Positions 601-57,239 are shown, counted from the first letter of the stretch. The stretch: DNA of 64,000 nucleotides from Gemmatimonadaceae bacterium (GCA_035650335.1 DASRHU010000052.1:17043-81042), one strand, 5' to 3'. The notes: generated by a model from the letters alone, not told the origin. Numbers and translations: made by a program.

Positions 601-698
601 CGGAATGCGGAATGCGGAGCGTCATGAGGAGCTGCTCGCGGCGCGACCATTTAGCGCCTGCCGCCAGTTCATCATAATCCTCCGCATTCCGCATTCCG
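601..698. repeat. Palindromic element: perfect 19-bp arms made of CGGAATG heptads (601-619 / 680-698) with a 60-nt spacer
   Basis: cggaatgcggaatgcggag at 601-619 and its exact reverse complement ctccgcattccgcattccg at 680-698. It lies between the stop of ORF 706-1155 and the ALDH start. Confidence 0.9.
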
Positions 699-705
699 AG
701 TTCCG

Positions 706-1155
706 TTATTGGCACTCCCACGCCGCCGGATGCTCCAGCGTCGGCTTGGCGTACCCAATACGCGGGAGAATCTCCTGAGCGGCGAGAAGGCCGCCCCACA
801 ACAGGATGAGCAGCGACAGCACGTGGGCCTTGCCCGCGCGATGCCGCCAGGCCCAGACCGCGCTCCACAGACCCGCTCCCGTCACCACCGCCACGGCGCC
901 GAGATACCCGAGGAGCCCGAATCCGCAACGCGCCTCGTATGGCCAGAAGATAATCCCGATGCCGAGCGCCACCGCGAGAGTCAGCCGCGTGAGCACTCCG
1001 AGGGTGGACGTCCGCCCCTGCTTGTCGACGACCTGCTGCGGCGGGGCCGTCGTTTTCGTTGGGGTCTTCGGGAAGATCTGCTCGTCGGACACCGACTCGA
1101 GCTGCTTGTCGATCTTCGCGAGCTCCTTCTCCCAATCTCGATCCACCATCGTCAC
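706..1155 (-). CDS. Hypothetical membrane protein
   Basis: 149-aa ORF with a hydrophilic N-terminus followed by three hydrophobic segments (LTLAVALGIGIIFW, LLGYLGAVAVVTGAGLW, VLSLLILLWGGLLAA). GC-rich third codon positions. Located 37 nt downstream of the NtrC-type regulator gene. Confidence 0.55.
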   Translation of the reverse strand: MTMVDRDWEKELAKIDKQLESVSDEQIFPKTPTKTTAPPQQVVDKQGRTSTLGVLTRLTLAVALGIGIIFWPYEARCGFGLLGYLGAVAVVTGAGLWSAVWAWRHRAGKAHVLSLLILLWGGLLAAQEILPRIGYAKPTLEHPAAWECQ

Positions 1156-1192
1156 CTCGGCGCGCAGGCTGCCGCGCGTGGTAAGGCATCAG

Positions 1193-8186: not shown

Positions 8187-8401
8187 GCGTTCCGAGCTTG
8201 TGGGTGGCACGGAATCAGCCAACGAGTGAACTGCGTCGGAGTTTCCGAGTGCAGGCTCAACGCGCCGATGTACCCGCAGCTTTGTTGTTTTCTCTGCGGC
8301 CATTGGACGAGGGGACAGGCTTTCCTCCCGAGCAGCACTCCGTCCTGTTGCGGCCCTCTGCGGTTACATGCCGCGGCACTCACTGACTCGGACGCAGTTC
8401 A

Positions 8402-10609
8402 CTAGAACCCGATCGTCGCCGTCGCGAAAACTGCGCGAGGCGAGCTCACGAAGTAGTACGGGCTCGTGCCGTCGGTGTATCCGGCGGCGAAAAAGCGCTC
8501 GTTGCCGACGTTCATCACGTGAACCGCCAGCCCGTGACGCCCGCTCCGCCATGCCGCGCGCGCGTCGACGAGATACGCAGCCGGGGTCATGAATCGCCGA
8601 TCGCCGGTATTCGCGAGGAAGCTGCGTCCCACGTAGCGGCCCCCGAGCGAGAGGGAGAGCGCGCGCGTCATCCGCCAGTCGAGGGTCTGGTTGACCAGCA
8701 TCCCCGGCGTGAGCAACGGATCGACATCGCGGTACGTCACGCCCGACGCGTCATCGGTATACTCGGCGATGCGGTTGCGGCTCAGCGTTGCGTTGACGGA
8801 GGCCGTGATCGTCGGCACGGGAACCCAGCTCACGTCCGCCTCGATGCCGCGTCGATACGACCTTCGCACGTTCTTGCGAAGCGGGAGCCCGATGTAGCTC
8901 AGCTCGCCGACCGGTGTGATCTCGTTATGAAACCGCATGTCGAACACGTTCACGTCTGCCGTCAGCGAGGGCCTCCGCCACCGTACCCCCGCCTCGGCGT
9001 CGTAAACGCGTTCGGGTCGAACGCGCGACAGCGGTCCCACGAACTCGATATTGGTGGTGTCGACGTTGTCGAAGCCGGCGAACATGTCGTTGCGCGTTGG
9101 CTCGCGCCCGTTCGAGCCGTACGAGGCATAGAACGTGGCGGCGCGGGATACTTCCCAGGTGATGCCCGCCTTCGGGTTCACGAACGTCCAGTCGATGCGG
9201 CTGGCTTCGATGCCTGATTGGGCGTCCGGCTCGTACTCGAACTCGGCGCGGCGCACCTGCAGGTCGCCGTAGAGCGTGAGGGACCCGAGCGCGAGCGCCG
9301 CCTTCGTGAAGGCACTCTGCTCGCGCTTGCGCCCGGTGTTCAGGTAGACCAGGGCATCGAGGTTCGGCCTGATGGCGAGCGAATGGTCGCGGTAGTAGGT
9401 GTTGGCGTGCACACCCACGTCGAGATCGAAGGCACCGCGCCGGGCACTCCAGGTGGTGAGCGCGCCCGCTACTCGTGAGGCAAGCTGGAAATTGTACATG
9501 TCCGGCGCAATGCGAACGTCGTAGTCGCCACCCTGCCAAATGGTGTACGCGACGGCCTGAAGCGCGGCCTCGCCGCCGACCGCCCGCGTCCAGGAGGCAC
9601 TGGCGAAATGCGCCTGGAAGTCATCGCGCTCATCGTCACCCAGCGGGTTGGTGCGCGGATCCCGCTCCAGGTCGGCCAGCGGGACCGCGAGATACGCCAG
9701 CTCGTTGCGCGATCGGCCGCCGAACAGGGTCACCTTCACGATGTCGCGGCCGCCGAAGTAGGCCCCGTTGGCGAAGTAGGATTGGCCGGTGTTGCCGGAG
9801 TGGTGTCGGTAGCCCTCGGTGCGGTGCGCGGAGGCGCGAACGTAGCTGGCGAAGCGCTCGCGCATCCGCCCGGAGGTCCACTCGCCGCTCCCGCGCGTCG
9901 TGCCGAACGATCCCCGCCCCACCTGCACTTGTCCGCTCCGCGTGCTGTTGGCGAGCGCTACCGACTGAAAGTTGATCGCGCCCGCGTACGCGGCGGACCC
10001 GTATGAGCTGGTGCCGACCCCGCGCTGGATCTGTACGGACTCGAGGCTGTTCCCGAAGTCGGGGAAATTGGAGAAGTAGACGAACTGATCCTCGGGATCG
10101 TTGAGCGGAATTCCATCGAGCGTGATGTTCACGCGCGTATGGTCGATGCCGCGCAACCGGAGGTACGTGTAGTTGGAGAATGCGCCCGCGTCGGCGTACG
10201 ACGTCACCGACGGCTGGCCCGTGAGCAACAGGGGAACGTCCTGTCCGACGTAACGGCGCTCGATCTCCTCGCTCTCCATCGTCCGCTGAGGAATCGGCGC
10301 GCCGGCGTCACCCCGAAGGGCAGTGACGGTAACGCGCTCGAGTGACGGGGCAGCCGGATCGAGCTCCACGATCACGATGGTATCACGCGACACATAGAGC
10401 TCGGCGGGCTGGTACCCCGCGCGCGCAAACCGGATGCGCGCCGGCCCATCGAGCTCGAGGGTGAAGCGGCCGGCCTCGTCGGTGAGGGTTCCGCCGCGTG
10501 CGGCGCGAGACGCCACCACGACGCCTACGACCGGCTCCCGGGTCACCGCGTCGCGAACCTCACCACGCACGGTGACGATGGCGAACAGCAATGTGAAAAA
10601 GTGCGACAC
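8402..10609 (-). CDS. TonB-dependent outer-membrane receptor with a carboxypeptidase-regulatory-like N-domain
   Basis: 735 aa. N-terminal GEVRDAVTREPVVGVVV...TDEAGRFTLE (CarboxypepD_reg-like), a plug region (ERVTVTALRGD...), a long beta-barrel, and a C-terminal aromatic residue (ATATIGF). The signal peptide is unusually short, so the start is uncertain. Confidence 0.9.
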   Translation of the reverse strand: MSHFFTLLFAIVTVRGEVRDAVTREPVVGVVVASRAARGGTLTDEAGRFTLELDGPARIRFARAGYQPAELYVSRDTIVIVELDPAAPSLERVTVTALRGDAGAPIPQRTMESEEIERRYVGQDVPLLLTGQPSVTSYADAGAFSNYTYLRLRGIDHTRVNITLDGIPLNDPEDQFVYFSNFPDFGNSLESVQIQRGVGTSSYGSAAYAGAINFQSVALANSTRSGQVQVGRGSFGTTRGSGEWTSGRMRERFASYVRASAHRTEGYRHHSGNTGQSYFANGAYFGGRDIVKVTLFGGRSRNELAYLAVPLADLERDPRTNPLGDDERDDFQAHFASASWTRAVGGEAALQAVAYTIWQGGDYDVRIAPDMYNFQLASRVAGALTTWSARRGAFDLDVGVHANTYYRDHSLAIRPNLDALVYLNTGRKREQSAFTKAALALGSLTLYGDLQVRRAEFEYEPDAQSGIEASRIDWTFVNPKAGITWEVSRAATFYASYGSNGREPTRNDMFAGFDNVDTTNIEFVGPLSRVRPERVYDAEAGVRWRRPSLTADVNVFDMRFHNEITPVGELSYIGLPLRKNVRRSYRRGIEADVSWVPVPTITASVNATLSRNRIAEYTDDASGVTYRDVDPLLTPGMLVNQTLDWRMTRALSLSLGGRYVGRSFLANTGDRRFMTPAAYLVDARAAWRSGRHGLAVHVMNVGNERFFAAGYTDGTSPYYFVSSPRAVFATATIGF

Positions 10610-10685: not shown

Positions 10686-11231
10686 CTATGCGGGGCGACC
10701 CGGGGACGCAAGCAGCGACTCGATCGCGCTGATGGCCGTCGCCGCACGCTGCTCCCACGTTCCGCGCACGAGCGTGCGCGTGGCGCCGTAGCGATCGAGT
10801 CGCTGCGCGAACGCGGCGTGAATTTCCTCGCGAGCGTCAGGCCGGTCTCTCGCGACATCCGGCACCCACGGGACGTCGACGTCGCAGAGCAGGTAGTGAT
10901 GGGCAAGCCGCTCCCTCGCGGCTCGCTCGATCCACGCGGGACACATGCCGTAATAGTGCTCGGCGTACACGACCGTGCTCACGAGGTCGGTGTCGAGCAC
11001 GGCGAGGTCATGCGCGCGCGACAGGATCGTGTCCTCCAGCTTGATCTGCCCGTGCGCGATCGGCTCGACATCGGACGCATCGAGGGGCGCGGCCTTCTGC
11101 TTCACGTACTCCCGCGCGAACTCGGGAACCCAGACAGTCTCGAAGTGATGCGCGAGCCGCGCGGCGAGCCAGGTCTTGCCTGTCGATTCCGAGCCGGTCA
11201 CGGTGATCCGCTTCAACGCCCCCGATTTCAC
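10686..11231 (-). CDS. AAA-family ATPase resembling the ribosylnicotinamide kinase domain of NadR
   Basis: The last 181 aa of the 401-aa track ORF: VKSGALKRITVTGSESTGKTWLAARLA (P-loop)...DTDLVST...YLLCDVDVPWVPD. The GTG start overlaps the pnuC stop as GTGA. The upstream 220 aa of the track ORF is a shadow frame over pnuC. Confidence 0.7.
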   Translation of the reverse strand: MKSGALKRITVTGSESTGKTWLAARLAHHFETVWVPEFAREYVKQKAAPLDASDVEPIAHGQIKLEDTILSRAHDLAVLDTDLVSTVVYAEHYYGMCPAWIERAARERLAHHYLLCDVDVPWVPDVARDRPDAREEIHAAFAQRLDRYGATRTLVRGTWEQRAATAISAIESLLASPGRPA

Positions 11232-11812
11232 GCGAACGCCGCCTCCGATGCCGGGCTCGCGCGAAGCGACGCTCGCCAGTGGCGCCAGCCGATGACGGCG
11301 AGCACACAGAAGACGAGGTACAGCCCCGCGGTAAGCCAGAGCGACTTGTAGAGGAACATCGCCACGTACGCGACGTCGGCCACGATCCACACGATCCAGC
11401 ACTCCACGTACTTGCGTGTCATCATGTACTGCGCCACGAGGCTGGCCGCCGTGAGCGCGGAGTCCGCCAGGGGCAGCGAGGCATCGGTGAAGCGCGAGAG
11501 AAGCGTGGAGAGGGCGGTGGTAAACACGAGGAAGAGCACCGCGAGAAGAGCACCTTCGCGCACCGAGACGCGTGAGACGTGCAATGCACCGCGATTCGCG
11601 CCACCGTGGAGCCAATGCCACCACCCGTAGAACGCGAGAACAACGTACACGACCTGGAGCCCCATGTCGGCATAGAGCTTCGCGCCGTGAAAGACGATGA
11701 TGTAGAGCCCGACGTTGATGATGCCGAGGGGCCAGTTCCACACGTTCTGTCGCGCGCTGAGATAGACGGCCGCAATGCCAAACGCGACGGCCAGGACTTC
11801 GATCGGATCCAT
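11228..11812 (-). CDS. pnuC: Nicotinamide riboside transporter PnuC
   Basis: 194 aa with about 7 hydrophobic helices and PnuC-type motifs (SARQNVWNWPLGIINVGLY, FYGWWHW, QYMMTRKYVECW). Confidence 0.85.
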   Translation of the reverse strand: MDPIEVLAVAFGIAAVYLSARQNVWNWPLGIINVGLYIIVFHGAKLYADMGLQVVYVVLAFYGWWHWLHGGANRGALHVSRVSVREGALLAVLFLVFTTALSTLLSRFTDASLPLADSALTAASLVAQYMMTRKYVECWIVWIVADVAYVAMFLYKSLWLTAGLYLVFCVLAVIGWRHWRASLRASPASEAAFA

Positions 11813-11851
11813 GTCGCAAAGATACTAGATCGCGTTGGACCATTGCAGAAA

Positions 11852-11895
11852 CGGAATGCGGAATCCGGATACTCATCTCCGGATTCCGCATTCCG
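11852..11895. repeat. Perfect 18-bp hairpin built from CGGAATG-type heptads (8-nt loop); likely also the terminator of the upstream kinase operon
   Basis: cggaatgcggaatccgga tactcatc tccggattccgcattccg, starting 18 nt after the stop of ORF 11913-12248. On the minus strand it is followed by TTTCTGC. Confidence 0.9.
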
Positions 11896-11912
11896 CTTTC
11901 TGACAGCCGTGC

Positions 11913-12248
11913 TCAGCCGTGCGGCAGTCGCTTTCTCACATCCCGTGCACCGCGCGCGACGCCGAAGCCGACGGCGGCCCCGAAGAGCAGCGCGGAGGGA
12001 AACCCGATGAACGGCACGATCCACACGATCGGCGTCGCGAGCGCGAGCGCCAGGCCACCGGCCACGAACGGGGCGGCCGGCGACTGAACGGCATCGACGA
12101 ATTGCAGGCGACGGCGCACGTATAGACGGGACTGGGCGAACGCGAGGGCGGACACGACGGCCACGCCGATGGTAGCAAGTAGCTCGAACACGGCAACTCC
12201 TCTGGAAGCTCTGCTCTCCGTACGCGGCTCAGGGCCCGCGCGTTTCAT
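11913..12248 (-). CDS. Small hypothetical membrane protein
   Basis: 111-aa ORF with two or three hydrophobic segments (VFELLATIGVAVVSALAFA, FVAGGLALALATPIVWIVPFIGFPSALLFGAAVGFGV). Its ATG overlaps the kinase stop (ATGA). Confidence 0.45.
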   Translation of the reverse strand: MKRAGPEPRTESRASRGVAVFELLATIGVAVVSALAFAQSRLYVRRRLQFVDAVQSPAAPFVAGGLALALATPIVWIVPFIGFPSALLFGAAVGFGVARGARDVRKRLPHG

Positions 12249-15200
12249 TCAGCCCGGCGAAGCCAGATGCGCACGATCGCCCCGCGGTCCTCGCGGCTCT
12301 CGATCTCGATGGTGCCGCCCCAATTCTCCAGCAGCTGACGGCTGATCGCGAGCCCCAGCCCGCTCCCGCTGGTGCGCGTCGAAAAGTGCGGCTCGAAGAT
12401 CCGCGGCAGGACCTCGGGCGCGATTCCGTGCCCATCGTCCTCCACCTCCACGAGCACCCGGCCCCCGTCCGGCGACACCCGCATCTCGACGTGGCGCGCG
12501 TTGGCCAGGCGGGCATTTTCGAGGAGATTGATGAGGACCTCACGGAGCTCGTCCTCGCTCGCGAGTGCGAGCACGGGCGAGGTGGCTCCGGTCGCGCGCC
12601 ATTCGATCTCGTCGCGGCCGAGCCGCTCGAGCTCCACGACGTCGCGCACCACTGCCGCGACGTCCGTCGCCTGCGCGGGCGGACGTTCGGCGGGAGCAGT
12701 TCCATATCGGCTGAAGCTGCGCGCGATCTCATCGAGCCGGTCGATCTCGGCGAGAATGCGCGTCACGTTGCGGTCGAGGATCTCGTCGAAATCGGCTCGC
12801 GCGTCACCGCGCGCGCGTCGCAGATGCTGCACGCCAAGGCGTATCGGCGTGAGCGGGTTCTTGATCTCGTGCGCGACCTGCCGGGCCATCTCGCCCCATG
12901 CGAGCACACGCTGGGCGCGAGCGAGATCGGTTACGTCATCCATCGTCACGACGGCGCCACCGACGCCGCGCGTCAATCGCGTGAGCCGAACGTGCAGCTG
13001 CCGCTGCCCGAGCGTCTCGTCGAATTCCTCCTCGTCGGTCGTGCCCTCCAGGAAGGAGCTCACGCGCCTCACCAGGGGCTCCGGCGCGATATCCTCGAGG
13101 CGGGTCGCCGGAGGGATCGCGTGATCGAGCAGCGCGTCGGCGGCCGGATTCGCCAACGTCACCACCAGCCATTTGTCCACGGCGATGACACCGCTGGCGA
13201 CGTTGCGAAGAATTGCCGCGATGCGGCGCTGCGCCTCCTCGAGGGCGGCGCGGCTCTCACCGAGATCGGCCGCCATCCGGCGGAACGCCGAGAATACCGG
13301 CGCGAACTCCTCGGGAGGAACACCCGTGAGCTGCGGCTCCCGGTCCCCCCGCGCGATCGCCAGCGCAGCGCTCTGCAGCGATCCAATGGGCTGCGCCAGC
13401 GAGCGCGCCGCGAAGCCGCTCAGCCACAGCGCGGCGAGGGCACCGAGCACCGTCGAGAACATCACCAGAATTCCGAGGTCGCGCCGGCGTCGATCGAGCA
13501 GTTCTACGCCTCCGCGTGCCGGCGCCGCGAGCACATCCCGTTCGCCCGCGGGGCCCGCGGTGAGCCGGTAGCCGACCAGCGTCGGTGTGCCGCCGATGGC
13601 GAGCGTCTCGCTGGCATTCACCTCGCCGCTCAAGCTGAGCTCCCCGTGCACCTTCCGCGGCAGGAACCGGCCGACGGCCGCCAGCGATTCGTGCAGCGCC
13701 GCGCTCGCCCGCCGCAGCGCGCCGTCGCGATAGAGAAAGAGCGGCGTTTGCAGCCGGTCCCCAATGGCCTCCAATCGCTCGAGATCCTCGGCGCCCGCGC
13801 CGGCACGCAGCGTTTCGCGCACGAGAAGCTCGCGCGACTGTCGCACCTCATCCTGGAGCCGGCGATAGCTCCACAAGGCGAAAATGCCGGCCGGAATCAC
13901 GAAGAAGAGGAAGAGGGCGACGGTGAGGCGCGCACGGTACGACCGCGACCAGCGGCGTCGCCGAGCGCGCAACCAGCGGCCAAATGCCCCGCCGGGGACG
14001 ACGCTCAGTACCCATAGCCCAAGGAGAAGGACGAGATCGAAGAGCACCACCAGCGTTCCACGCTGGACGAGCAGGTCCAGCGACCGCAGCTCCACCTCAA
14101 TGTGCGCCCTGGCCGGTCCGTTCGGCGTGGCGACGATGCGGTCGCCGTGAAACTCGTTCACATCGCGGTACCATCGCGTCTGCCCGGTGGGCGGAAGTGG
14201 TGATCGCGAATCGACGTCAGTGAGCGCGAGCGAGTACGGCGGCTCGCCGCGCTCGCGGGGCTCGAGTCCCAGCAGAACCAGGAATGGGTCGTCGGGGATG
14301 AGGCGCGTACGCGGTTGAACGACGACCGCGGTCACGGTTCCGCCGGGATGAGGCACAGCGAGAATCGTGTTCGTCCCCGGAACCGAGGGGACGAGGCGAA
14401 GCACGCGGGTACCGCGACGGCGTGCATCAGTGACGACAGGGCCGACCTCGCGCTGATCGACGTCGACCGGCGTCAGCGAGAGCACGGCACCGGGGAAGCC
14501 ATCGGGGAGCCAACTCGACAGCGCCACCGGGTAGCCGGCCCCTCCGAGATCGGAGCGAACGAACCGGCGAAGCAGCTCGGCCTCGGTGAGCGGTGCCGGC
14601 CCGGCCTCAATGGAATCGGCGAGGCGCTCCAGCAACGCGACCGGATACGGATCGGGAGCGGCGAGGTCACCCACGTCATCGTTCGCCAGCGCCACGCGCC
14701 CGCGGACACCCGCGCCCCAGGTGAGCGTCGCTGCCCCGAACGCGGCAACAGTGGCCGCGGTCACGACGAACGCGACGTGCCGCCGCGTGAGCGCGAGCGC
14801 GCCGATCGCTCCGATCCAGAGGATCGGATACCATCCGGGCCAGCGTCCGGGAGCGTCCCACACGACTGGCCCGATGAGCGCGGCCACACCGGCCAGGGCC
14901 GGCGCGATCGCGGGATGGAGTCCGCGTGAGGCGCCGACGATCGCGCCTCCCGCGGCGGCGGCTCCGAGCAACAGCGCCGCGGCGGCAAGGAAGATGGCGA
15001 CCTGCCACGCGAGCCAAAGCCCGAGCGTGATTCCGGACGCGGGCACCGTCACACCGCGGGCGAGGTCGCGCAGCAGGAACGGGCCCAGCGACATCACGAT
15101 CACCACGATCACGATCGCCGCCGGTCTCCAGCTCGCTCGCGCGCGCGCGCGCAGCACGGTCAGGAGGGCGAGAAGCGCGGTCGCGCTGGAAAGCGCGAGC

Positions 15201-16315
15201 GCTCCCACGCTCGCGGTGTAGGGGCCGCCGAGGTGGGCAGAGTACACCGTGGGATCGAAGAGCGGCGTGTCACTCGAGAAGGTGCCTAACGGCACCAGGC
15301 CCAGCGAGGCGAAGGCCACACCGAGCGTCGCGAGACGCCACGTCAAGGCGCGATGGCGTGCCCAGGACGCGGCGAGAAAGAGCGCGAGAGCGAGCGCCAG
15401 AAGGAATGCCCCGCGCTCCCGCGCGCGGTCGAGCGAGAGCAGGGCCGCCTGCCCTTGCGAGGGCACGATGGGGCGCACGCGGAAGAGCGTGTCGCCACCG
15501 CGCCCGACGTACGGAGCGCTTTCCGGAAGCTCGCGTACCGTCGGCAGCACGAATTGATAGGCTTCGAGTCCGGACCGCGCGGCGATGCGCTCGTCCACGG
15601 CGTGAGCGAGACGGTCGGCGGGCGATTCCGCGTGGACGAGCGCGGCGGCAACCGCGCGCCTCTGCCCGCGCTCCTCCGACGCATACAGCGCCACGTAGAA
15701 TGGCGTGAAGATGACGCCCCCCGCACCTGCGACTGAATCTGTCCGGACGCGTGCTCGGCCAGCCCACGCGAACGGTCGGCCCGACTCGTAGAGCGCGACG
15801 GTCTCCGCGCCCTCGAGCGGTACCACGCGCTCGAGCTCGGCGAACGCCTGCGCGGTATCCGCGGAGACCTCGAGCGCGGTTCGCGCGCGGCGCAGCAATG
15901 CGCCTTCGACACTCGCGAGCGCGTCGTCGAGACGATCGGTTCCTCGCGCGATTCTCTGCCGCCGGTAGTCCGCCCAGCCACCATCGATCCGGCGCAAGTC
16001 GACCTGGGCGATCGCGGCGACGACGCAGAGGCTCGCGAGGACGACCGCCGTCAGCACCCCCCATGCGCGCGGCCGCGGCGCAAGGCGCAGGAGTATCACC
16101 GCCGCCACGGTAGCGATGGCCGCCGGGACGAGGTAGCGTACATCGGGCGTGCGGAGCCAGAGCGCCGCGAAGAGCAGCGCGACGGCCACGATGACCGTCC
16201 ACGCGCGTGCCGTCGATTCGCTCGTCAGGCGCGCGGGCCGCGCCAGCCGGACTTTCTCATCGATGGAAATGACCGTCCCCCTCCCCACCGCCGCGTCCTC
16301 GCCGCGCCGGCTCAA
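12245..16315 (-). CDS. Large multi-pass membrane sensor histidine kinase (NtrY-like C-terminal module)
   Basis: 1356 aa. About 850 aa with many hydrophobic segments, then a HAMP-like linker, a PAS-like segment (ILRNVASGVIAVDKW), HisKA (HEIKNPLTPIRLG) and an intact HATPase_c (NLLENA, DDGHGI, GSGLGLAISR). The start is uncertain because the track start is a TTG only 5 nt from the divergent creatininase ATG. Confidence 0.9.
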   Translation of the reverse strand: MSRRGEDAAVGRGTVISIDEKVRLARPARLTSESTARAWTVIVAVALLFAALWLRTPDVRYLVPAAIATVAAVILLRLAPRPRAWGVLTAVVLASLCVVAAIAQVDLRRIDGGWADYRRQRIARGTDRLDDALASVEGALLRRARTALEVSADTAQAFAELERVVPLEGAETVALYESGRPFAWAGRARVRTDSVAGAGGVIFTPFYVALYASEERGQRRAVAAALVHAESPADRLAHAVDERIAARSGLEAYQFVLPTVRELPESAPYVGRGGDTLFRVRPIVPSQGQAALLSLDRARERGAFLLALALALFLAASWARHRALTWRLATLGVAFASLGLVPLGTFSSDTPLFDPTVYSAHLGGPYTASVGALALSSATALLALLTVLRARARASWRPAAIVIVVIVMSLGPFLLRDLARGVTVPASGITLGLWLAWQVAIFLAAAALLLGAAAAGGAIVGASRGLHPAIAPALAGVAALIGPVVWDAPGRWPGWYPILWIGAIGALALTRRHVAFVVTAATVAAFGAATLTWGAGVRGRVALANDDVGDLAAPDPYPVALLERLADSIEAGPAPLTEAELLRRFVRSDLGGAGYPVALSSWLPDGFPGAVLSLTPVDVDQREVGPVVTDARRRGTRVLRLVPSVPGTNTILAVPHPGGTVTAVVVQPRTRLIPDDPFLVLLGLEPRERGEPPYSLALTDVDSRSPLPPTGQTRWYRDVNEFHGDRIVATPNGPARAHIEVELRSLDLLVQRGTLVVLFDLVLLLGLWVLSVVPGGAFGRWLRARRRRWSRSYRARLTVALFLFFVIPAGIFALWSYRRLQDEVRQSRELLVRETLRAGAGAEDLERLEAIGDRLQTPLFLYRDGALRRASAALHESLAAVGRFLPRKVHGELSLSGEVNASETLAIGGTPTLVGYRLTAGPAGERDVLAAPARGGVELLDRRRRDLGILVMFSTVLGALAALWLSGFAARSLAQPIGSLQSAALAIARGDREPQLTGVPPEEFAPVFSAFRRMAADLGESRAALEEAQRRIAAILRNVASGVIAVDKWLVVTLANPAADALLDHAIPPATRLEDIAPEPLVRRVSSFLEGTTDEEEFDETLGQRQLHVRLTRLTRGVGGAVVTMDDVTDLARAQRVLAWGEMARQVAHEIKNPLTPIRLGVQHLRRARGDARADFDEILDRNVTRILAEIDRLDEIARSFSRYGTAPAERPPAQATDVAAVVRDVVELERLGRDEIEWRATGATSPVLALASEDELREVLINLLENARLANARHVEMRVSPDGGRVLVEVEDDGHGIAPEVLPRIFEPHFSTRTSGSGLGLAISRQLLENWGGTIEIESREDRGAIVRIWLRRAE

Positions 16316-16319
16316 AGAG

Positions 16320-17015
16320 ATGACTCCCGCTCAGGTCGCGGCAATCCTCGCCGAGGACCCACGGCTCATCGTCCCGGTCGGGACGTGCGAGCAGCACGGC
16401 CCTCACCTGCCGATCGGAACCGCGACCATCATCGCCGAGCGCCTGGCCGACGACCTGTCGGCGGAGTACGGAGTCCTCCGTGCCCCGACGGTCGAGTACG
16501 GCGTGAACGTCGTGACCGAGCGTGCCTTCGCCGGCAACGCATCGGTTCGCAGGAAGACGCTGCACCGCATGCTCAACGATCTCCTGGCTTCATGGGAGGC
16601 CACGGGTTTTCGCGAATTCATCCTGCTCACCGCCCACGATCATGACCCGCACCAGGAAGCGCTGGCGACGGTGATAACGTCGGTGGCGCGGGTTCGCGTG
16701 GTCGATCTGAACGCGATCCCCATCGCCGATCTGCTCGAAGGGCAACCGGAGCACATGCACGGCGATGAGGTCGATACGTCGCTATTGCTCTTTCTGGCGC
16801 CCGAGCTCGTACATCTCGAGCTGGCGCAGGATTATATGATGTCGCGCGAGGCGATGCGACGTTACCGGCGCGGTTCACTGCGCGTCCCGAAAGGGAGTCC
16901 CGGGTCGATCGGGCGGCCGTCGCTCGCCTCTCCGGCGAAAGGACGCGCGCTGTACGAGCGGATTCGCGAGCGGATCAGCGAGCGCATCTTCCTCGCGCCG
17001 GCCCCCGAAGTATGA
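16320..17015 (+). CDS. Creatininase (creatinine amidohydrolase) family protein
   Basis: MTPAQVAAILAEDPRLIVPVGTCEQHGPHLPIGTATIIAERLA...LLTAHDHDPH...HGDEVDTS, with family-typical EQHG.HLP and metal-ligand segments. The start is taken at the internal ATG, since the longer track ORF would overlap the kinase N-terminus. Confidence 0.8.
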   Translation: MTPAQVAAILAEDPRLIVPVGTCEQHGPHLPIGTATIIAERLADDLSAEYGVLRAPTVEYGVNVVTERAFAGNASVRRKTLHRMLNDLLASWEATGFREFILLTAHDHDPHQEALATVITSVARVRVVDLNAIPIADLLEGQPEHMHGDEVDTSLLLFLAPELVHLELAQDYMMSREAMRRYRRGSLRVPKGSPGSIGRPSLASPAKGRALYERIRERISERIFLAPAPEV

Positions 17016-17725: not shown

Positions 17726-17744
17726 GGGTGGCTGGACGCAAACG

Positions 17745-17773
17745 ACGCCCCGCTCGCGGGGCGTTTTTGCTTT
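17745..17773 (+). terminator. Rho-independent terminator
   Basis: acgccccgc tc gcggggcgt followed by tttttgctttg, 20 nt after the stop at 17725. Confidence 0.7.
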
Positions 17774-21454: not shown

Positions 21455-21456
21455 CC

Positions 21457-22698: not shown

Positions 22699-22700
22699 CG

Positions 22701-23966: not shown

Positions 23967-23970
23967 CCGC

Positions 23971-24093: not shown

Positions 24094-24138
24094 GGCCTCA
24101 ACCCGTGACCGCCGGCACGCTCGTTCAGTCCTTTCGGT

Positions 24139-33878: not shown

Positions 33879-33886
33879 GATGAACG

Positions 33887-33972: not shown

Positions 33973-33991
33973 AGAGCTATCTTCTCTCTCC

Positions 33992-41625: not shown

Positions 41626-41634
41626 GGAGCCAAG

Positions 41635-41712
41635 GTGATCGAGGTGGTCGAGGTCGTCGAGGGTGTCGAGGTGGACCTCGACACCGTCGACACCCTTGAC
41701 ACCCTTGACACC
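41635..41712. repeat. Palindromic element: arms of four 9-nt GTNGTCGAG units, 4-nt loop
   Basis: gtgatcgag gtggtcgag gtcgtcgag ggtgtcgag g tgga c ctcgacacc gtcgacacc cttgacacc cttgacacc. It has a perfect 10-bp core plus periodic mismatches. It fills the pgsA-stop to cinA-start gap, ending 9 nt before the cinA ATG. Confidence 0.9.
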
Positions 41713-41713
41713 C

Positions 41714-42430
41714 TCAGTCTCGAAACACGCCCCAATACCGCCGCAAATACAGCCACATCGACCAAAGCGTCAGCGCGACGGCGACCATCATTGTCGTCAC
41801 GCCGGCGAGGCCGTTGAAGTAGGCGTACACGCGCCAGGCGGACGATGTCCACCGCTCGTCGGCGGCAAGCGTGGCTGCGCCGAACCAGAAGAAGGCAATT
41901 CCCACCCAGGTCCACTGGAAGCCGGTCTTCACCTTTGCCGGCCCGATGGCGGCAATCACGACATCGCGTCGCGCGGCCGCCTGGCGGAAGAGCGTCATGA
42001 AGAGCTCGCGGCCCAGCACGATGGCGAGGATCCACCAGGGGAGGCCGACGGGACCCCAGGGCGTAAGGAAAGGAAAGGCCGCGCCCTGACTCCCTCCCTC
42101 TCGCGACATGGGACCGAGCACGCCGTCCACGAGCGGCGTCCGATGCGGCGAGATGAGCGACGCGTCCCACCCATTTCCGGCGAGCATGAACATCGGGACG
42201 AACGTCGCCAGCAGGAGCAGCTTGTCGGCGAGCGGGTCGAGCAGTGTGCCGAGTCGCGTGACGAGGTTCCGGCTGCGCGCCAGCCGGCCGTCCCAGTAAT
42301 CGGTGACGGCGACGACGATGAAGAGAATGAACGCCGCGAAACGGAGCGACCACGATGGCGAAAAGGGCAACAGCGCCACCAGCGGCGAGATGGCGATGCG
42401 ACCGACCGTCAGGGTGTTCGGGAGGTTCAT
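41714..42430 (-). CDS. pgsA: CDP-alcohol phosphatidyltransferase (PgsA-like)
   Basis: 238 aa with the motif DYWDGRLARSRNLVTRLGTLLDPLADK (D.2DG.2AR.8G.3D.3D) and a multi-pass membrane profile. It is longer than a typical PgsA. Confidence 0.8.
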   Translation of the reverse strand: MNLPNTLTVGRIAISPLVALLPFSPSWSLRFAAFILFIVVAVTDYWDGRLARSRNLVTRLGTLLDPLADKLLLLATFVPMFMLAGNGWDASLISPHRTPLVDGVLGPMSREGGSQGAAFPFLTPWGPVGLPWWILAIVLGRELFMTLFRQAAARRDVVIAAIGPAKVKTGFQWTWVGIAFFWFGAATLAADERWTSSAWRVYAYFNGLAGVTTMMVAVALTLWSMWLYLRRYWGVFRD

Positions 42431-44859: not shown

Positions 44860-44896
44860 AGACTGGGGAAATTATTCGGCGGGGCGGTGTTATACA

Positions 44897-44994
44897 ATGA
44901 GGAACGAGGACCGAGGACCGAGGAATTCGATACGGGAACGGCTCGCGCAATCGAGTTCCTCGGTCCTCGGTCCTCGTTCCTTCTCGTTCCTCAT
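44897..44994. repeat. Palindromic element: arms of GAGGACC-type heptads (4-5 units), 20-nt spacer
   Basis: Left arm atgaggaac gaggacc gaggacc gaggaat tcga (44897-44930). The right arm (44951-44994) is its reverse complement with a 10-nt insertion. Located between the dnaX stop (45000) and the ybaB start (44859). Confidence 0.9.
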
Positions 44995-44999
44995 TCCCG

Positions 45000-46750: not shown

Positions 46751-46796
46751 CAAACGGAAACGCGCGAGGCCGGACGATGTGTCCGGCACCCGCGCG
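46751..46796 (-). terminator. Hairpin plus T-rich tail directly after the SRP RNA
   Basis: Minus strand: CGCGCGGGTGCCGGAC ACAT CGTCCGGCCTCGCGCG followed by TTTCCGTTTGGG. The stem is imperfect and GC-rich. Confidence 0.5.
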
Positions 46797-46899
46797 AGTG
46801 CCTCAGGTCTTACGGGGCAGCGTTCACCACACGTACCGCTGCTACCTGCGGGGTCCTGACGGGATTAGTGAGCTCCCGCTCCCCGGGACCTGAGGCACC
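46797..46899 (-). ncRNA. ffs: Signal recognition particle RNA (small bacterial 4.5S type)
   Basis: A minus-strand transcript of about 100 nt closed by a perfect 12-bp helix (GGTGCCTCAGGTC...GACCTGAGGCAC). The domain IV core GTCAGG-ACC-loop-GGT-AGCAGC matches the conserved GUCAGGUCCGGAAGGAAGCAGC, with the 5' AGG / 3' AGCA symmetric loop intact. It has its own promoter and terminator and the classic position upstream of dnaX-ybaB-recR. Confidence 0.8.
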
Positions 46900-46902
46900 G
46901 GG

Positions 46903-46931
46903 AATCTAGTCGAGGTCGGGGGCCGATTCAA
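46903..46931 (-). promoter_or_regulatory. Candidate sigma-70 promoter of ffs (TTGAAT-N17-TAGATT)
   Basis: Minus-strand TTGAAT at 46931-46926 and TAGATT at 46908-46903. The first G of the RNA closing helix lies 4-7 nt downstream. Confidence 0.55.
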
Positions 46932-46933
46932 TT

Positions 46934-47084
46934 GGGCCATGGGCCAAGGGCCAGGGGCCAGGGGCCAGGGGTGCGGTAAGGCAACGGCGGCCAACGGCCG
47001 CCGTTGCTCATCAATGAGGCGGCTGCGGCGATAGCCGCGCCGCCCTTTCAACCCCCCTGGCCCTTGGCCCCTGGCCCTTGGCCC
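46934..47084. repeat. Palindromic element: arms of GGGCCAN heptads (5 units), 80-nt spacer containing two GC hairpins
   Basis: Left arm gggccat gggccaa gggccag gggccag gggccag ggg (46934-46971). Right arm ccccccctggcccttggcccctggcccttggccc (47052-47084). Inner hairpins at 46981-47007 (perfect 12-bp stem) and about 47019-47045. Confidence 0.9.
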
Positions 47085-48133
47085 GGAGTTCTCAGCCCCT
47101 GGCCCTCGCCCGCCATGCGCTCGAGAACCTGCCTAACGACACTCCCCGCCATGCGCACCGCACTCTCCCCGACGTCCAGGTGCGTTACCGCGCGAATGCG
47201 CGTCGGCGACCAGACCGTCAGCAGCACGTCACGGCGCGCGGCCTCGGCGACGACGGCAGACGCCTCGAGCGAGCCCGGGAGGTCGAGCATCACGATGTTC
47301 GTGTCCGGAGGAACCACACGCGCCCCGGCCACTCCGTCGACCAGCGATGCATAGAGACGCGCGGTCGCGTGGTCATCGGAAATGCGCGGCAGGTGCGCAT
47401 CGAGTGCGTACAACGCGGCGGCCGCGAGAATGCCCGACTGTCGCATTCCGCCGCCGAAGCGCTTTCGAACCGACCACCCTTCCGCGATCACGTCTCGCGA
47501 GCCGGCGAGCGCCGCACCAATGGGGCATCCGAGCCCTTTGGAGAACGACACCATCACCGTATCGGCCACTGAGGCGAGAGTCGCGAGGCTCTCGCCGCTC
47601 GCCGCCGCGGCGTTCCACAGCCGGGCGCCATCGAGATGCACCGCGAGCGCGTGAGCACGCGCCACGTTCGCGATCGCACGCATCTCCCCGAGCGGCGTGA
47701 CGAGCCCGCCTGCTCCGTTGTGCGTGTTCTCGAGGCACACCAGCGACGCGGACGGAACGTGCTTCGACGGTGATCGAACGGTCGCGGTCAGCCCGGCCGC
47801 ATCCATGACCGGTGCGCCAGTCACCGGGCGAACCTGCACACCCGCGAGCGCCGCGGCGCCCGCCATCTCGTAATGGAGAATGTGAGCGCCGGCGTCGAGC
47901 AGGACTTCCGTGCCCGGTCGCGACAGGAGCCACACCGCGGTCTGGTTGGCCATCGTCCCACTGGGAAAGAAGAGCGCCGCCTCCTTTCCCAGGAGCTCCG
48001 CCACTCGCTGCTCCAGCCGTTTCACCGTCGGGTCGCCGTCGAGCACGTCGTCACCCACGTCGGCGTCCGCGATCGCCCGCCGCATGGCGGGCGTCGGTTT
48101 CGTCACGGTATCGCTGCGAAGGTCGATGGGCAT
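47048..48133 (-). CDS. ltaE: Low-specificity L-threonine aldolase
   Basis: The start is taken at the internal ATG: MPIDLRSDTVTKPTPAMRRAIADADVGDDVLDGDPTV...FFPSGTMANQ...SFSKGLGCPIG (PLP Lys). The last ~12 codons (PGQGPGAKGQGG) are encoded by the right arm of the repeat element. The upstream 104 aa of the track ORF are rejected. Confidence 0.85.
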   Translation of the reverse strand: MPIDLRSDTVTKPTPAMRRAIADADVGDDVLDGDPTVKRLEQRVAELLGKEAALFFPSGTMANQTAVWLLSRPGTEVLLDAGAHILHYEMAGAAALAGVQVRPVTGAPVMDAAGLTATVRSPSKHVPSASLVCLENTHNGAGGLVTPLGEMRAIANVARAHALAVHLDGARLWNAAAASGESLATLASVADTVMVSFSKGLGCPIGAALAGSRDVIAEGWSVRKRFGGGMRQSGILAAAALYALDAHLPRISDDHATARLYASLVDGVAGARVVPPDTNIVMLDLPGSLEASAVVAEAARRDVLLTVWSPTRIRAVTHLDVGESAVRMAGSVVRQVLERMAGEGQGLRTPGQGPGAKGQGG

Positions 48134-54934: not shown

Positions 54935-54935
54935 G

Positions 54936-55715
54936 TCAGTCGATGCGAATGGTGAGGCCGTCGAACGCCGGGGCAATACCGGCGGGCAGCTCCGCCTCGA
55001 GGTCCGCATGCCGATTGTCGTGCGTCAGGTGCGTCAGGTACGTGCGTTCCGCGCCGAGGTCACGCGCGACTCGCACGGCTTCGGGGATGCTGAGGTGCGT
55101 GGGATGCTCGGTACGAAAGAGCGCGTTGATGACGAGCACGCGCGCGCCTTCCATGCGCGTCATCGCGCGCGGGGGGACGCTCTTCGCATCGGTGATGTAC
55201 GCGAGCGGACCGATCCGATAGCCGTAGACGACGCATGGCCCGTGCGGGACGGACACGGCGATGACATTCACGCCACCAAGCTCGACGGATTCACCGTCAT
55301 CGAGTGGACGCGCCTGCCCCTCCGGTTTGGAGGTGCCGGGTAGCGGACGGATCGTGTCGTCGAAAATGTAGGGGAACCGTCGCGCAAGACGGTCCAGCGT
55401 TTCGCGCGCGCCGTAGATCGGGAGCGCGGCGCCGCGCCGCACGGAGATCGCTCGAAGGTCGTCGATCCCGTGCGTGTGGTCGGCGTGGTCGTGGGTGTAG
55501 AAGACCGCATCGATTCGATCGATGTCGGCCGCGATCAGCTGGGTGCGCAGCTCGGGGGGCGTGTCGATGAGGAGCCGCGTCCCATCATCGGTTTCGACGA
55601 CGGCGCCGACGCGCGTGCGACGATCGCGAGGATCGGGAGAGCGGCACACGTCGCAGTGACACCCGAGCTGCGGCACGCCGAAGCTCGTGCCGGTGCCGAG
55701 GAAGGTCAGCTTCAC
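54936..55715 (-). CDS. MBL-fold metallo-hydrolase (PhnP/GPMB-like)
   Basis: The GTG start overlaps the pyk stop (GTGA). VKLTFLGTGTSFGVPQLGCHCDVC, metal motif FYTHDHADHTHG. Confidence 0.8.
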   Translation of the reverse strand: MKLTFLGTGTSFGVPQLGCHCDVCRSPDPRDRRTRVGAVVETDDGTRLLIDTPPELRTQLIAADIDRIDAVFYTHDHADHTHGIDDLRAISVRRGAALPIYGARETLDRLARRFPYIFDDTIRPLPGTSKPEGQARPLDDGESVELGGVNVIAVSVPHGPCVVYGYRIGPLAYITDAKSVPPRAMTRMEGARVLVINALFRTEHPTHLSIPEAVRVARDLGAERTYLTHLTHDNRHADLEAELPAGIAPAFDGLTIRID

Positions 55716-57184
55716 ACGACTTCGACCTTCATCAGGTTGGTGCTGCCCGGCTGGTCGAAGGGAACGCCCGCCGTCACGACGACGCGCTCCCCGGGCATCG
55801 CGAGCCCGCGTCGGCGCGCGGCCTCGAGGGCGTGCCCGACCATCTTGGTGTAGCTGCCTGACGAGGGAACGAGCTCGGGCTGCACGCCCCACACGAGGGC
55901 GAGCTGGCGGAAGGTGCGCTCGACGTCGGTCACCGCGAGGATGGGGACTTCGGGGCGATGCGATGCGACCACGCGCGCGCTGAAGCCGCTCTTCGTGAAC
56001 ACGATGATGAGCGGCACGGCGAGCATGCGGACCGCGGCCACGGTCGCCGCGGCGATCGCGTCCTCGGTTTCCACGGGACCGTCTGCTCGGCGCAACCGCG
56101 CATGGTCGGTCGCGCGCTGCCGCGGCGCGGGGTGGCTCTCGATCTCGGAGATGATCCTGCTCATCGCGCGCACGGCGAGCTCCGGATACTGCCCGGTGGC
56201 CGTCTCGGCCGACAGCATGACCGCATCGGTACCGTCGAGGATGGCGTTGGCGACGTCGCTGGCTTCGGCGCGGGTGGGTCGCGGATTCTCGATCATCGAC
56301 TCGAGCATCTGCGTCGCGGTGATCACCGGACGTCCCACCGAGTTCGCGAGCGAGATGATGCGCTTCTGGGCGATCGGGACTTCCTCGAACGGCAGCTCCA
56401 CGCCGAGATCGCCGCGCGCGACCATGACGGCGTCGGTCGCGCGCATGATGCTGTCGATGTTCGCGAGCGCCGTATCCTTCTCGATCTTCGCCACGACCAG
56501 GATGTTCCGCGGAATCAGCTTGCGCAGCCCCTGGATGTCCTCGGCGCGCCGGACGAACGACAGCGCGAGGTAGTCGACCTCCTGGGCGACGGCGAAGTCG
56601 ATGTCGGCCCGGTCCTTTTCGGTGATCGAGGGTGCCGACACGTGCACGCCCGGCAGATTGATCCCCTTGTGACTCACGAGTGAACCGCCGTGAACGACCC
56701 GCGCGACCACCCGCGGCGCGTGCTCTTCCATCACCACGAGGTCGAGCAGGCCGTCGTTGATCAGGATGCGATCCCCCACCTTCACGTCGCTCGCCAGCTC
56801 GCCGTACGTCACCGGGATTTCGCCGTTCCTCGCATCCGCTTCCGGCGCGAGAACGATGTCGGTCCCCTCGATGAGCGTGACTGGCGCGGGCAGGTCGCCG
56901 ATGCGGATGCGCGGCCCTTGAAGGTCACCGAGCAGCGCGACCGGCTTCTTCAGCTCCTGCGCGATCGCGCGGACCGCTCGAATGACCTCGGCGTGCTGCT
57001 CGTGCGTCCCGTGCGAGAAGTTGATGCGGGTGACGTTCATCCCCGCCATGATCAGCGTGCGCAGCGCCGCGGGCGACGACGAGGCGGGGCCGATGGTGCA
57101 GACGATCTTGGTGCGGGCGGTGTGACTCGAGGTCGTCGAGGATGTCGAGGTCGTCGAGGTCGTCGAGGGTGCCACGGTGCTCAA
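55712..57184 (-). CDS. pyk: Pyruvate kinase with a repeat-encoded Ser/Thr-rich N-terminal extension
   Basis: RTKIVCTIGPAS, MNVTRINFSHG, GDLGVELP, MLESM. The TTG start at 57184 is preceded by GAGGAG. There is no other in-frame start before the conserved core, so STTSTTSTSSTTSS is translated. Confidence 0.9.
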   Translation of the reverse strand: MSTVAPSTTSTTSTSSTTSSHTARTKIVCTIGPASSSPAALRTLIMAGMNVTRINFSHGTHEQHAEVIRAVRAIAQELKKPVALLGDLQGPRIRIGDLPAPVTLIEGTDIVLAPEADARNGEIPVTYGELASDVKVGDRILINDGLLDLVVMEEHAPRVVARVVHGGSLVSHKGINLPGVHVSAPSITEKDRADIDFAVAQEVDYLALSFVRRAEDIQGLRKLIPRNILVVAKIEKDTALANIDSIMRATDAVMVARGDLGVELPFEEVPIAQKRIISLANSVGRPVITATQMLESMIENPRPTRAEASDVANAILDGTDAVMLSAETATGQYPELAVRAMSRIISEIESHPAPRQRATDHARLRRADGPVETEDAIAAATVAAVRMLAVPLIIVFTKSGFSARVVASHRPEVPILAVTDVERTFRQLALVWGVQPELVPSSGSYTKMVGHALEAARRRGLAMPGERVVVTAGVPFDQPGSTNLMKVEVV

Positions 57185-57239
57185 GGGCTTTTCTCCTCGA
57201 TCACCTTGACGACCTGGACGACCTCGCCCACCTCGACCA
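57124..57239. repeat. Palindromic element: five 9-nt GTCGTCGAG-type units on each arm, bracketing the pyk start codon
   Basis: The left arm (57124-57170: tgactcgag gtcgtcgag gatgtcgag gtcgtcgag gtcgtcgag) lies inside pyk codons. The right arm (57195-57239: cctcgatca ccttgacga cctggacga cctcgccca cctcgacca) abuts the tal stop. Confidence 0.9.

Follow-up and report, generated by a model that had tools for sequence, protein, structure and literature searches.

Eight palindromes whose arms are themselves tandem arrays of 7- or 9-nt units lie at gene 3' ends in a 64,000-nt stretch of DNA from a Gemmatimonadaceae bacterium (GCA_035650335.1 DASRHU010000052.1:17043-81042; hereafter the window, with positions counted from its first letter). 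These repeat-armed palindromes are real and non-random. Their general class is that of the convergent heptamer simple sequence repeat (SSR) pairs of Xanthomonas, here in a new phylum, with several units, 9-mers, and fast turnover. We tentatively read them, with somewhat less than an even chance of being right, as hypermutable microsatellite palindromes that serve as hairpins lacking a U-tract at the ends of transcription units, the periodicity being a by-product of slippage.

The window has a GC content of ~67%, and its DnaX is 96% identical to that of a metagenome-assembled soil Gemmatimonadaceae genome. Tandem Repeats Finder reported period-7 or period-9 arrays on both sides of all eight loci. 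An inverted-repeat finder returned the same loci as the longest inverted repeats of the window, with arms of 21 to 56 nt that are 77 to 97% complementary and separated by 2 to 96 nt. These searches bear out the initial annotation, which had described eight such loci. With a unit-agnostic detector (a tandem tract of period 5 to 13 whose reverse-complement partner tract has an equal period and lies at most 160 nt away), no pair was found in 100 first-order Markov simulations of the window. Strict settings of this detector recovered six of the eight loci; the two missed, 33887-33972 and 41635-41712, are real and weaker. Tandem tracts numbered 22 in the window versus a mean of 4.0 per simulation. 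Fifteen of the 22 are members of the eight loci, and the other tracts, of period 5, 6, 7, or 9, lie inside open reading frames (ORFs). The eight elements, numbered E1 to E8, are as follows.

596 to 703, minus strand: E1, a CGGAATG-armed palindrome with periodic parts at 600-618 and 681-698, extended arms at 596-634 and 665-703, and a center of 30 to 62 nt, flanked by the stop of ORF 706-1155(-) and by an aldehyde-dehydrogenase gene that starts at 575.
11849 to 11898, minus strand: E2, CGGAATG arms at 11849-11869 and 11878-11898, 95% complementary, with an 8-nt loop, after the stop of ORF 11913-12191/12248(-).
23968 to 24096, plus strand: E3, 56-nt arms at 23970-24025 and 24039-24094, 86% complementary, with outer arms of GGGNTCGAN 9-mers and a unique inner stem, starting 3 nt past the stop of the MacB permease 22695-23966, the last gene of an ATP-binding cassette (ABC)-transporter operon.
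33882 to 33974, plus strand: E4, the weakest member, whose degenerate units CGGAATT/CGGAAGG/CGGAAAT face GCATTCC/GCAGTCC/GCATTC, starting 8 nt past the stop that closes the second MacB permease operon (32607-33878) and ending 19 nt upstream of ATG 33992 (PIG-L deacetylase).
41626 to 41716, minus strand: E5, a 9-mer palindrome with four GGGTGTCRA units in the sense 5' arm and four CCTCGACNA units in the 3' arm, occupying the entire 88-nt pgsA-cinA spacer from the pgsA stop to 7 nt before the cinA ATG.
44893 to 44996, minus strand: E6, a GAGGAAC/GAGGACC heptamer palindrome with arms at 44900-44931 and 44950-44981, 97% complementary, situated after the dnaX stop (45000) and ahead of a promoter-like segment of ybaB.
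46930 to 47105, minus strand: E7, a GGGCCAR heptamer palindrome, 46934-46971 and 47054-47084, with an extra partial copy to 47105 and a center of 82 to 89 nt that contains two inner GC hairpins.
57117 to 57246, minus strand: E8, a GTCGTCGAG-type 9-mer palindrome, 57117-57168 and 57195-57246, starting at the tal stop (57240).

The units found in the window were CGGAATG, GAGGACC, GGGCCAR, and GRGGTSGTC, with 9-nt units in three of the eight elements. The initial annotation held that the architecture stays constant while the unit changes, and the several unit families agree with this. The choice of unit is not a free one, as both CGGAATG and the GRGGTSGTC 9-mer were used three times at unrelated window loci. 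The gene names given in the initial annotation were confirmed by Pfam, whose assignments comprised MacB-type permeases, a pgsA-type CDP-alcohol phosphatidyltransferase, cinA, ybaB, dnaX, Beta_elim_lyase (the ltaE-like gene), transaldolase, and pyruvate kinase.

From the stop codon onward, the anatomy is a G-rich 7- or 9-nt array, then a unique inner stem and loop, then the complementary C-rich array; the far end of the element is the next promoter, ~40 nt before the next start codon or RNA gene, or that start codon itself. On the sense strand, the stop codon runs directly into the array in E1 (TAA, then CGGAACT CGGAATG), E5 (TGA, then GGGTGTCAA), E6 (TGA, then CGGGAAT GAGGAAC), and E8 (TGA, then TGGTCGAGG). 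The array begins 17 nt after TGA in E2, 3 nt after TAG in E3, and 8 nt after TGA in E4. On a gene map called with a home-made codon model, all eight elements lie in spacers between co-directional genes and none in a divergent spacer.

This placement recurred in relatives. Among 80 related loci (L001 to L080, all Gemmatimonadaceae or Gemmatimonadota, 1.19 Mb in total), the strict detector found 20 further elements, of period 7 (n = 11), 9 (n = 6), 8 (n = 2), and 11 (n = 1). They were clustered in the clade closest to the window and scattered elsewhere; in most other members, including Gemmatimonas phototrophica, the strict detector found no element in the sampled 20 kb. When strict calls were merged where overlapping and the two weaker window loci were added, all 25 resulting elements lay beside a stop codon; tandem spacers held 22 and convergent spacers 3, and the divergent spacers, which are few, held none. 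The location at gene 3' ends proposed for the window is thus upheld in the wider set. The distance from stop codon to element ranged from -39 to +26 nt, and where a spacer had slack the element sat on the stop side at all seven independent sites. Distances from element to next start were bimodal, at 0 to 7 nt or ~19 to 56 nt, mostly 38 to 49.

Promoter-like motifs of the form TTGnnn-N17-TAnnnT stand immediately downstream of E2, E6, and E7. After E2 we observed TTCTGC-N17-TAGTAT-N9-ATG, leading into a nicotinamide mononucleotide (NMN)-transporter gene (11228-11812, minus strand), and after E6, TTGTAT-N17-TAATTT-N9-ATG of ybaB. The 3' arm of E7 ends 39 nt before a signal recognition particle (SRP) RNA gene, at a predicted TTGAAT-N17-TAGATT promoter. 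This gene (ffs; 46799-46894, minus strand, upstream of dnaX) scored 37.9 bits against Rfam RF00169, for which the threshold is 40, so default Rfam annotation overlooks it; its terminator is a GC hairpin followed by TTTCCGTTT at about 46751-46790. TAnnnT hexamers 6 to 10 nt upstream of many starts (e.g., TAGTAT-N9-ATG at 11812 and TAATTT-N9-ATG at 44859), together with Shine-Dalgarno-like motifs upstream of only 17 of 57 predicted window starts, suggest that leaderless or very-short-leader mRNAs may be widespread in the window.

At two elements the arms reach into coding sequence. The sense 5' arm of E7 codes for the last ~20 codons (GEGQGLRTPGQGPGAKGQGG, then stop) of the ltaE-like ORF 47048-48133(-), and the stop codon lies in the loop. 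For the pyruvate-kinase ORF, the sole possible starts, TTG 57184 and GTG 57175, are both in the loop of E8; the 3' arm would therefore be translated, giving an N-terminal extension of ~20 serine/threonine-rich residues made from 9-mers, and the Pfam domain of this ORF starts at residue 24. Arrays also extend into ORF ends in L005, L045, and L047. The translated arms, like the strict polarity described below, were overlooked in the initial annotation.

Three further features of the window touch on this gene map. E3 and E4 end two paralogous MacB/FtsX-type ABC-transporter operons (19362-23966 and 31369-33878), whose internal genes overlap by 4 nt; the paralogs end in different element families, a 9-mer element (E3) and a heptamer element (E4). 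The gene caller skipped an ORF with high GC at third codon positions (16149-17015, plus strand, 288 amino acids), probably on account of its overlap with the 5' end of a 1,356-amino-acid ORF (12245-16315, minus strand); the apparent 696-nt divergent spacer 16316-17011 is therefore probably mostly coding. A non-periodic relative of the elements also occurs:

8225 to 8403, minus strand: a 28-nt inverted repeat (8225-8252 and 8376-8403) with a 123-nt center and a folding z-score of -2.9.

This repeat opens exactly at the stop codon of gene 8402-10609(-), and the stop-anchored long palindromes of the window are thus not all periodic.

Predicted RNA folds of the eight elements had free energies from -35 to -130 kcal/mol (E1, -64; E2, -38.7; E3, -96; E4, -34.7; E5, -49.5; E6, -70; E7, -130; E8, -75). 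In E5 the arms have partly diverged, with a perfect inner stem of 11 to 17 bp followed by periodic pairing. Spacer folding z-scores of the five strongest elements were -6 to -10 (including E1, -6.5; E2, -6.4; E3, -10.1; and E6, -8.8), with -5.1 for E5 and -1.6 for E4. Strong structure was confined to stop-proximal spacers (z-scores of -4 to -10) and was absent from divergent ones. Canonical terminators, a hairpin plus a T-tract, were few in the window: 17744-17765(+), 48213-48186(-), and the ffs terminator near 46751, to which a fourth candidate at 26173-26213, probably bidirectional, can be added. The initial count of about three was roughly right. At other genes the canonical terminators sit 15 to 20 nt past the stop, the same position that the palindromes occupy.

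A search of the window at Rfam gathering thresholds gave no match. In E-value mode, E7 matched microRNA-precursor models only, which are generic long hairpins, and these matches were discarded. We also rejected a reading of the GAGG motif in many 5' arms as a Shine-Dalgarno sequence, since about half of random G-rich heptamers would have such a motif and CGGAATG, GGGCCAR, and GATTGCK lack it.

The arms have a strict polarity. The 5' arm held more G than C in 24 of 26 elements, with two ties and no reversal, and because the elements are palindromes this G-arm-first order is true on both strands. Unpaired arrays in the window and relatives likewise had the G-rich strand reading away from the nearest ORF in 34 cases versus 10, and C-rich arrays abutting start codons had this orientation in 21 versus 3. 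Arrays of the latter kind, unpaired C-rich heptamer or octamer direct arrays, end 0 to 12 nt before the dnaX start in other Gemmatimonadaceae:

L024, 9980-10015
L027, 1710-1741
L034, 9977-10021
L028, 1-42
L032, 9931-9989
L053, 9964-9991
L075, 9989-10015

Their units include ACCGACCT, ACCGAAC, CCTAATC, TCTCCCT, and others; (CCTAATC)n is the complement of the telomere-like GATTAGG repeat. Across non-coding tandem tracts, periods of 7 (74 tracts) and 9 (25 tracts) prevailed, with few of 8, 10, or 11 and almost none of 5 or 6, and about half of these tracts had a complementary partner close by.

The polarity extends beyond this family of bacteria. Scanning public metagenomes for (CGGAATG)3 returned at least 120 contigs with GC contents of 0.36 to 0.75. 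The matches listed held 128 arrays (the figure of 51 of these 128 lying inside ORFs is unreliable); 40 had a convergent complementary partner and 1 a divergent one. Among the matches listed, an ORF boundary was next to the G strand's 5' end in 26 single CGGAATG arrays and next to its 3' end in 2. On inspected contigs with GC contents of 0.45 to 0.66 (L083, L129, L135, L156, L164, L198, and others), the array begins 0 to 5 nt past the stop, as in TAG followed by AATGCGGAATG and TGA followed by ATGCGGAATG, or is fused to it (TAG followed by AATGCGG, TGA followed by ATGCGG), and this abutment has near-nucleotide precision across apparently unrelated bacteria. BLAST showed no overlap between the metagenome contigs and the Gemmatimonadaceae loci. 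The elements had been suggested to be the lineage's own alternative 3'-end structures. That the architecture is not special to the lineage follows from these contigs, with their single or paired arrays, and from Xanthomonas, which has 70 to 75 like pairs per genome (PMC4692102).

Orthologous spacers show how fast the elements change. In each of the seven genomes compared, the pgsA-cinA spacer holds a periodic array structure whose unit varies: GGGTGTCRA in the window and L005, GGGGTCCTC in L001, AGGGTCCTC in L002, GAGGTGCTC in L004, CCAGCGCCY in L003, and the 7-mer GATTCCC in L059. In five of the seven, the palindromes fold with z-scores of -5 to -10.7. At dnaX-ybaB, five genomes use the unit GAGGAAC, L002 uses GATTGCK, and L008 uses ATAGGTG. 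Between L001 and L002, which are 92.7% identical, the dnaX-ybaB palindromes are wholly different within identical flanks, and the E7 site is occupied in one and empty in the other. The window and L005 are likewise 92.7% identical; the E6 3' arm is kept between them, and the L005 5' arm differs at ~29% of positions. Unit numbers differ in both comparisons (window versus L005 and L001 versus L002). Mirrored unit variants, considered as a sign that one arm templates the other, were shared between the two arms in L002 (18343) and L008 and not in E7 and L089, and so do not decide for templating. These comparisons show an architecture that recurs in elements whose turnover is much faster than that of the surrounding sequence. 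The expectation that the palindrome persists while its unit is replaced is borne out at pgsA-cinA and dnaX-ybaB, and the gain and loss of units and their wholesale turnover fit the slipped-strand dynamics first proposed. At dnaX-ybaB in L014, L029, and L030 there is instead a non-periodic hairpin whose loop holds the -35-like TTGCC of a TTGCC...TAGCTT promoter, which looks like an overlapping arrangement of terminator and promoter.

These observations would fit together as follows under the reading that we favor. Positioned within the 3' region that is transcribed, the elements would give rise to an RNA hairpin of 18 to 56 bp in the place of an intrinsic terminator. This hairpin would mark where the upstream message ends; it could serve as a terminator or attenuator lacking a U-tract ahead of the next promoter, and may block 3'-to-5' exonucleases. 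Where it bridges stop and start, it would loop out the spacer and place both codons at the base of a single stem. Function would not lie in the 7- or 9-nt periodicity, which would instead be a trace of stem growth and turnover. Replication slippage would gain and lose units, and template switching within the palindrome or selection for pairing would keep the arms alike, so that slippage and arm matching together could yield fast concerted replacement of units between relatives.

Several results weigh against this reading of the elements. Sense and antisense folds are equally stable. G.U mismatches on the sense strand exceed A.C mismatches by 31 to 19 overall, a weak excess that transcription-coupled deamination would produce identically, and in the window they stand at 5 versus 8. 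The stretch after the stem averages 2.2 T per 8 nt versus 2.0 on the antisense side, so that no tract is present, as first described, and any termination by the elements would be non-canonical. The pgsA-cinA arrays of L003 and L059 are asymmetric, mainly a C-rich array by the cinA start, and E6 in L005 has one decayed arm; because of these unequal and decayed arms, selection on pairing appears weak. In most other Gemmatimonadaceae the dnaX-ybaB spacer is 19 to 30 nt long and has no hairpin, so the element is dispensable there. We infer the role in termination or stabilization from position only. RNA 3'-end, mRNA-stabilizing, cruciform, and protein-binding roles had all been suggested for the elements, and none of them is supported by these data. 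Slippage alone, moreover, does not account for the strict G-arm-first polarity, for the recurrence of units at unrelated loci, or for the wholesale replacement of units at 92.7% genome identity. The favored reading, like the alternatives below that posit no dedicated generating process, leaves unexplained why the G strand reads away from the ORF, why 7 and 9 nt are preferred, and why units recur.

It is rather unlikely, and still the strongest competing account, that the arrays are functionless and fill space, a lineage-wide mutational process making 7- to 9-nt microsatellites in dispensable DNA. Arrays would then expand up to the stop on one side and the promoter or start on the other, and palindromic pairs would persist as the least harmful form. 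The elements do fill precisely the free space between stop and promoter or start, and the same spacers in most relatives lack them. Presence/absence polymorphism and full unit replacement at 92.7% genome identity, the decayed arm of L005 and unequal arms of L003 and L059, the arrays that run into ORF ends, and the lack of an RNA-specific wobble signature in the window all agree with neutrality. However, divergent spacers are also free DNA and yet carry no elements, and Xanthomonas is alike in this. Undirected slippage would not be expected to give the polarity observed in unpaired arrays (34 versus 10), in the single CGGAATG arrays (26 versus 2), or in the pairs (40 versus 1). A small set of units reappears at unrelated loci, and the stems are far more perfect than neutral decay predicts.

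For the window, an origin as non-autonomous mobile elements is unlikely. Elements like repetitive extragenic palindromic (REP) sequences, REPINs, or MITEs (miniature transposable elements with inverted repeats) would insert past ORFs, mobilized in trans, with the arrays as terminal inverted repeats. One CGGAATG family on other contigs is clearly of mobile origin. On contigs with GC contents of 0.67 to 0.72, a ~100-nt dispersed repeat consists of (CGGAATG)4, a conserved core (GTAAGGGnGAGCGTCG...CGAACGACCTCYCACTTC), and (CATTCCG)4. At least 17 copies, 80 to 84% identical including the core, have non-homologous flanks and sharp AATG...CATT ends, and several contigs carry two copies. Copies were located at:

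L089, 2916-3040
L108, 1788-1898 and 2172-2288
L165, 5147-5249 and 11229-11367
L174, 256-375 and 8598-8703
further contigs with this family: L109, L126, L131, L153, L163, L189, L192

The occurrence of CGGAATG at three unrelated window loci, the exchange of whole elements between identical flanks (L001 versus L002), and the near-nucleotide abutment of arrays to stops in many taxa could be read in the same way. In the window lineage, however, loops at non-orthologous sites have no similarity across the window and the 80 Gemmatimonadaceae loci; an all-against-all comparison of the loops of 22 elements gave matches between orthologs only. A hidden Markov model (nhmmer) of the conserved metagenomic core had no match in the window or in L001 to L080. 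Arm and loop lengths vary widely for a single unit, the loops of E1, E2, and E4 being 62, 8, and 43 nt, and no target-site duplications were obvious by eye in the flanks of the family alignment, for which no systematic search was made. Nor was a transposase or the REP-associated transposase RAYT seen close to the elements, although no search aimed at either was made. The initial statement that the elements are unlike REP or MITE copies therefore stands for the window lineage, with its unrelated loops, and fails for the dispersed conserved-core repeat of the high-GC contigs.

An origin by a dedicated process, active across phyla at ORF boundaries, in place of passive slippage, is similarly improbable. 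Candidates would be the healing of broken spacers, with short units added repeatedly at 3' ends, or an enzyme-driven duplication of the hairpin base. Such a process would explain why the G strand reads away from the ORF, a geometry like that of a head-to-head telomere fusion, and why arrays begin 0 to 5 nt from stops in bacteria with GC contents of 0.45 to 0.70. It would likewise explain the recurrence of units and the exchange of whole palindromes at 93% genome identity. Hairpins made in this way would be a self-renewing, sequence-independent punctuation of gene ends.

It is very unlikely that the functional structure is one of DNA, the view held for Xanthomonas, in which a G-quadruplex (G4) or i-motif, a cruciform, or an array bound by proteins would influence replication, supercoiling, or transcription. 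The equal folding of the two strands suits this account, as does a polarity that is symmetric with respect to the ORF and not to transcription direction, the G strand pointing away from the ORF. In vitro, both G4 and i-motif structures have been obtained with oligonucleotides of the Xanthomonas and Nostoc units (PMC4692102). However, four or more GGG runs occur in only two to three of the eight elements (E3 and E7, marginally E5), E1, E2, E4, E6, and E8 having GG runs only. CGGAATG, GAGGACC, and GTCGTCGAG units are incapable of a three-tetrad G4. Variation of the unit from locus to locus makes a protein that binds a specific sequence unlikely, and a 7- or 9-nt period does not match the helical repeat of DNA.

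Extremely unlikely is translational coupling in the subset that bridges stop and start, in which the base of the stem joins the two codons and a ribosome that terminates there opens about one unit, freeing the next start or handing over to it. Both gaps are no more than 9 nt in 7 of the 22 tandem-spacer elements (e.g., E5, the pgsA-cinA elements of L001, L002, and L004, and those of L014, L016, and L019). About 9 nt of mRNA is held in the ribosome entry channel, a span near the unit length, and the scarcity of Shine-Dalgarno motifs makes another route of internal initiation plausible. The argument is one of geometry, however: a promoter, not a start codon, is downstream of most elements, and L003 and L059 retain only the C-rich array at pgsA-cinA.

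The value of the window is that it separates features that had been seen together. The Xanthomonas work, the only detailed study of its kind, linked heptamers to G-quadruplexes of a single unit. In the Gemmatimonadaceae window the architecture, the placement after the stop, and the G-arm-first polarity stay, and the unit and period change. Because unit and period vary between loci and between close relatives, explanations by G4 or a binding protein are unlikely, which leaves two options, that the hairpin has a structural role at gene ends or that a directional mechanism generates the arrays. The lineage context is one of few Shine-Dalgarno sites, many promoters that look leaderless, and few U-tract terminators. 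Should the lineage rely mainly on these hairpins as terminators or insulators, they would bear on operon prediction in a large, mostly uncultured soil phylum and on the understanding of termination without a U-tract. Annotation would be affected too, as arrays extend ORF ends in ways that may be spurious or real (the ltaE-like gene and pyk).

Compared with known systems, the elements share single features with several and most with one. A CRISPR array can be rejected, as the initial annotation had done, given contiguous 7- to 9-nt units in inverted arms versus 23- to 50-nt direct repeats with unique spacers. Like integron attC sites, the elements are imperfect palindromes that begin near an ORF stop, with a conserved fold and variable sequence; unlike them, they have no R''/R' cores (RYYYAAC...GTTRRRY), and they are flanked by syntenic housekeeping genes (dnaX-ybaB, pgsA-cinA). 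The likeness to intrinsic terminators lies in a GC-rich hairpin 0 to 20 nt past the stop, often just before the next promoter, and between convergent genes the palindromes could act both ways. The stems, however, are 18 to 56 bp versus 5 to 14 bp, the centers reach 89 nt, the arms are periodic, and there is no U-tract. Hairpin terminators of an "I-shaped" kind, which lack a U-tract, have been proposed for high-GC bacteria. In Escherichia coli, REP sequences are extragenic palindromes after stops and between co-directional genes, and their transcribed hairpins can protect the upstream mRNA. The elements resemble REPs and bacterial interspersed mosaic elements (BIMEs), REPINs, and MITEs as extragenic palindromes typically past stop codons, but copies in the window lineage have only a short unit in common, not a loop or core, and REPs lack tandemly periodic arms.

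Intergenic tandem heptamers of cyanobacteria (short tandemly repeated repetitive [STRR] sequences, GGGGAYT) and Beggiatoaceae (TAACTGA) are likewise set by ORF boundaries (PMC4692102, PMC4679880). The TAACTGA direct repeats mostly end 1 nt before a start codon (MacGregor 2015, PMC4679880), in which they resemble the C-rich arrays abutting Gemmatimonadaceae start codons. They and the STRR arrays differ from the elements in being nearly always single direct arrays with one dominant unit per genome, the inverted exceptions being one case in Beggiatoa and "only a few" in Nostoc. According to work cited in PMC4692102, an excess of heptamer microsatellites in bacterial spacers has been on record since 2007; in the literature searched, we found no published description of such arrays in Gemmatimonadota.

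The closest match is with Xanthomonas campestris and X. axonopodis, which have ~185 GGGAATC heptamer arrays, including 70 to 75 convergent pairs (Rehm et al. 2015, PMC4692102). Those arrays are 89 to 93% intergenic, sometimes overlap an ORF end, and are rare between divergent ORFs; their mean distance is 28 nt to the upstream ORF and 160 nt to the downstream ORF (PMC4692102). Their G-rich strand is sense after stops and antisense before starts, and their gene neighbors are common to both species while length and sequence vary (PMC4692102). They are transcribed, and transcript starts and stops at the arrays exceed controls; the authors emphasized the G4 formation seen in vitro with Xanthomonas and Nostoc units and wrote that function "remains to be elucidated" (PMC4692102). 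The window elements agree with these pairs in having convergent tandem arrays with stem-loop potential, the G-rich array first, by or over the end of the upstream ORF and in no divergent spacer. They differ in having no genome-wide GGGAATC/GGGANTN unit, with at least four unit families including 9-mers in the window, and in a G4 potential limited to two to three of eight elements. They differ further in the swapping of units at orthologous sites, in the unique inner stems of the palindromes, and in phylum, Gemmatimonadota. The two systems meet in one relative of the window, L059, whose GATTCCC arrays are the complement of the Xanthomonas unit GGGAATC.

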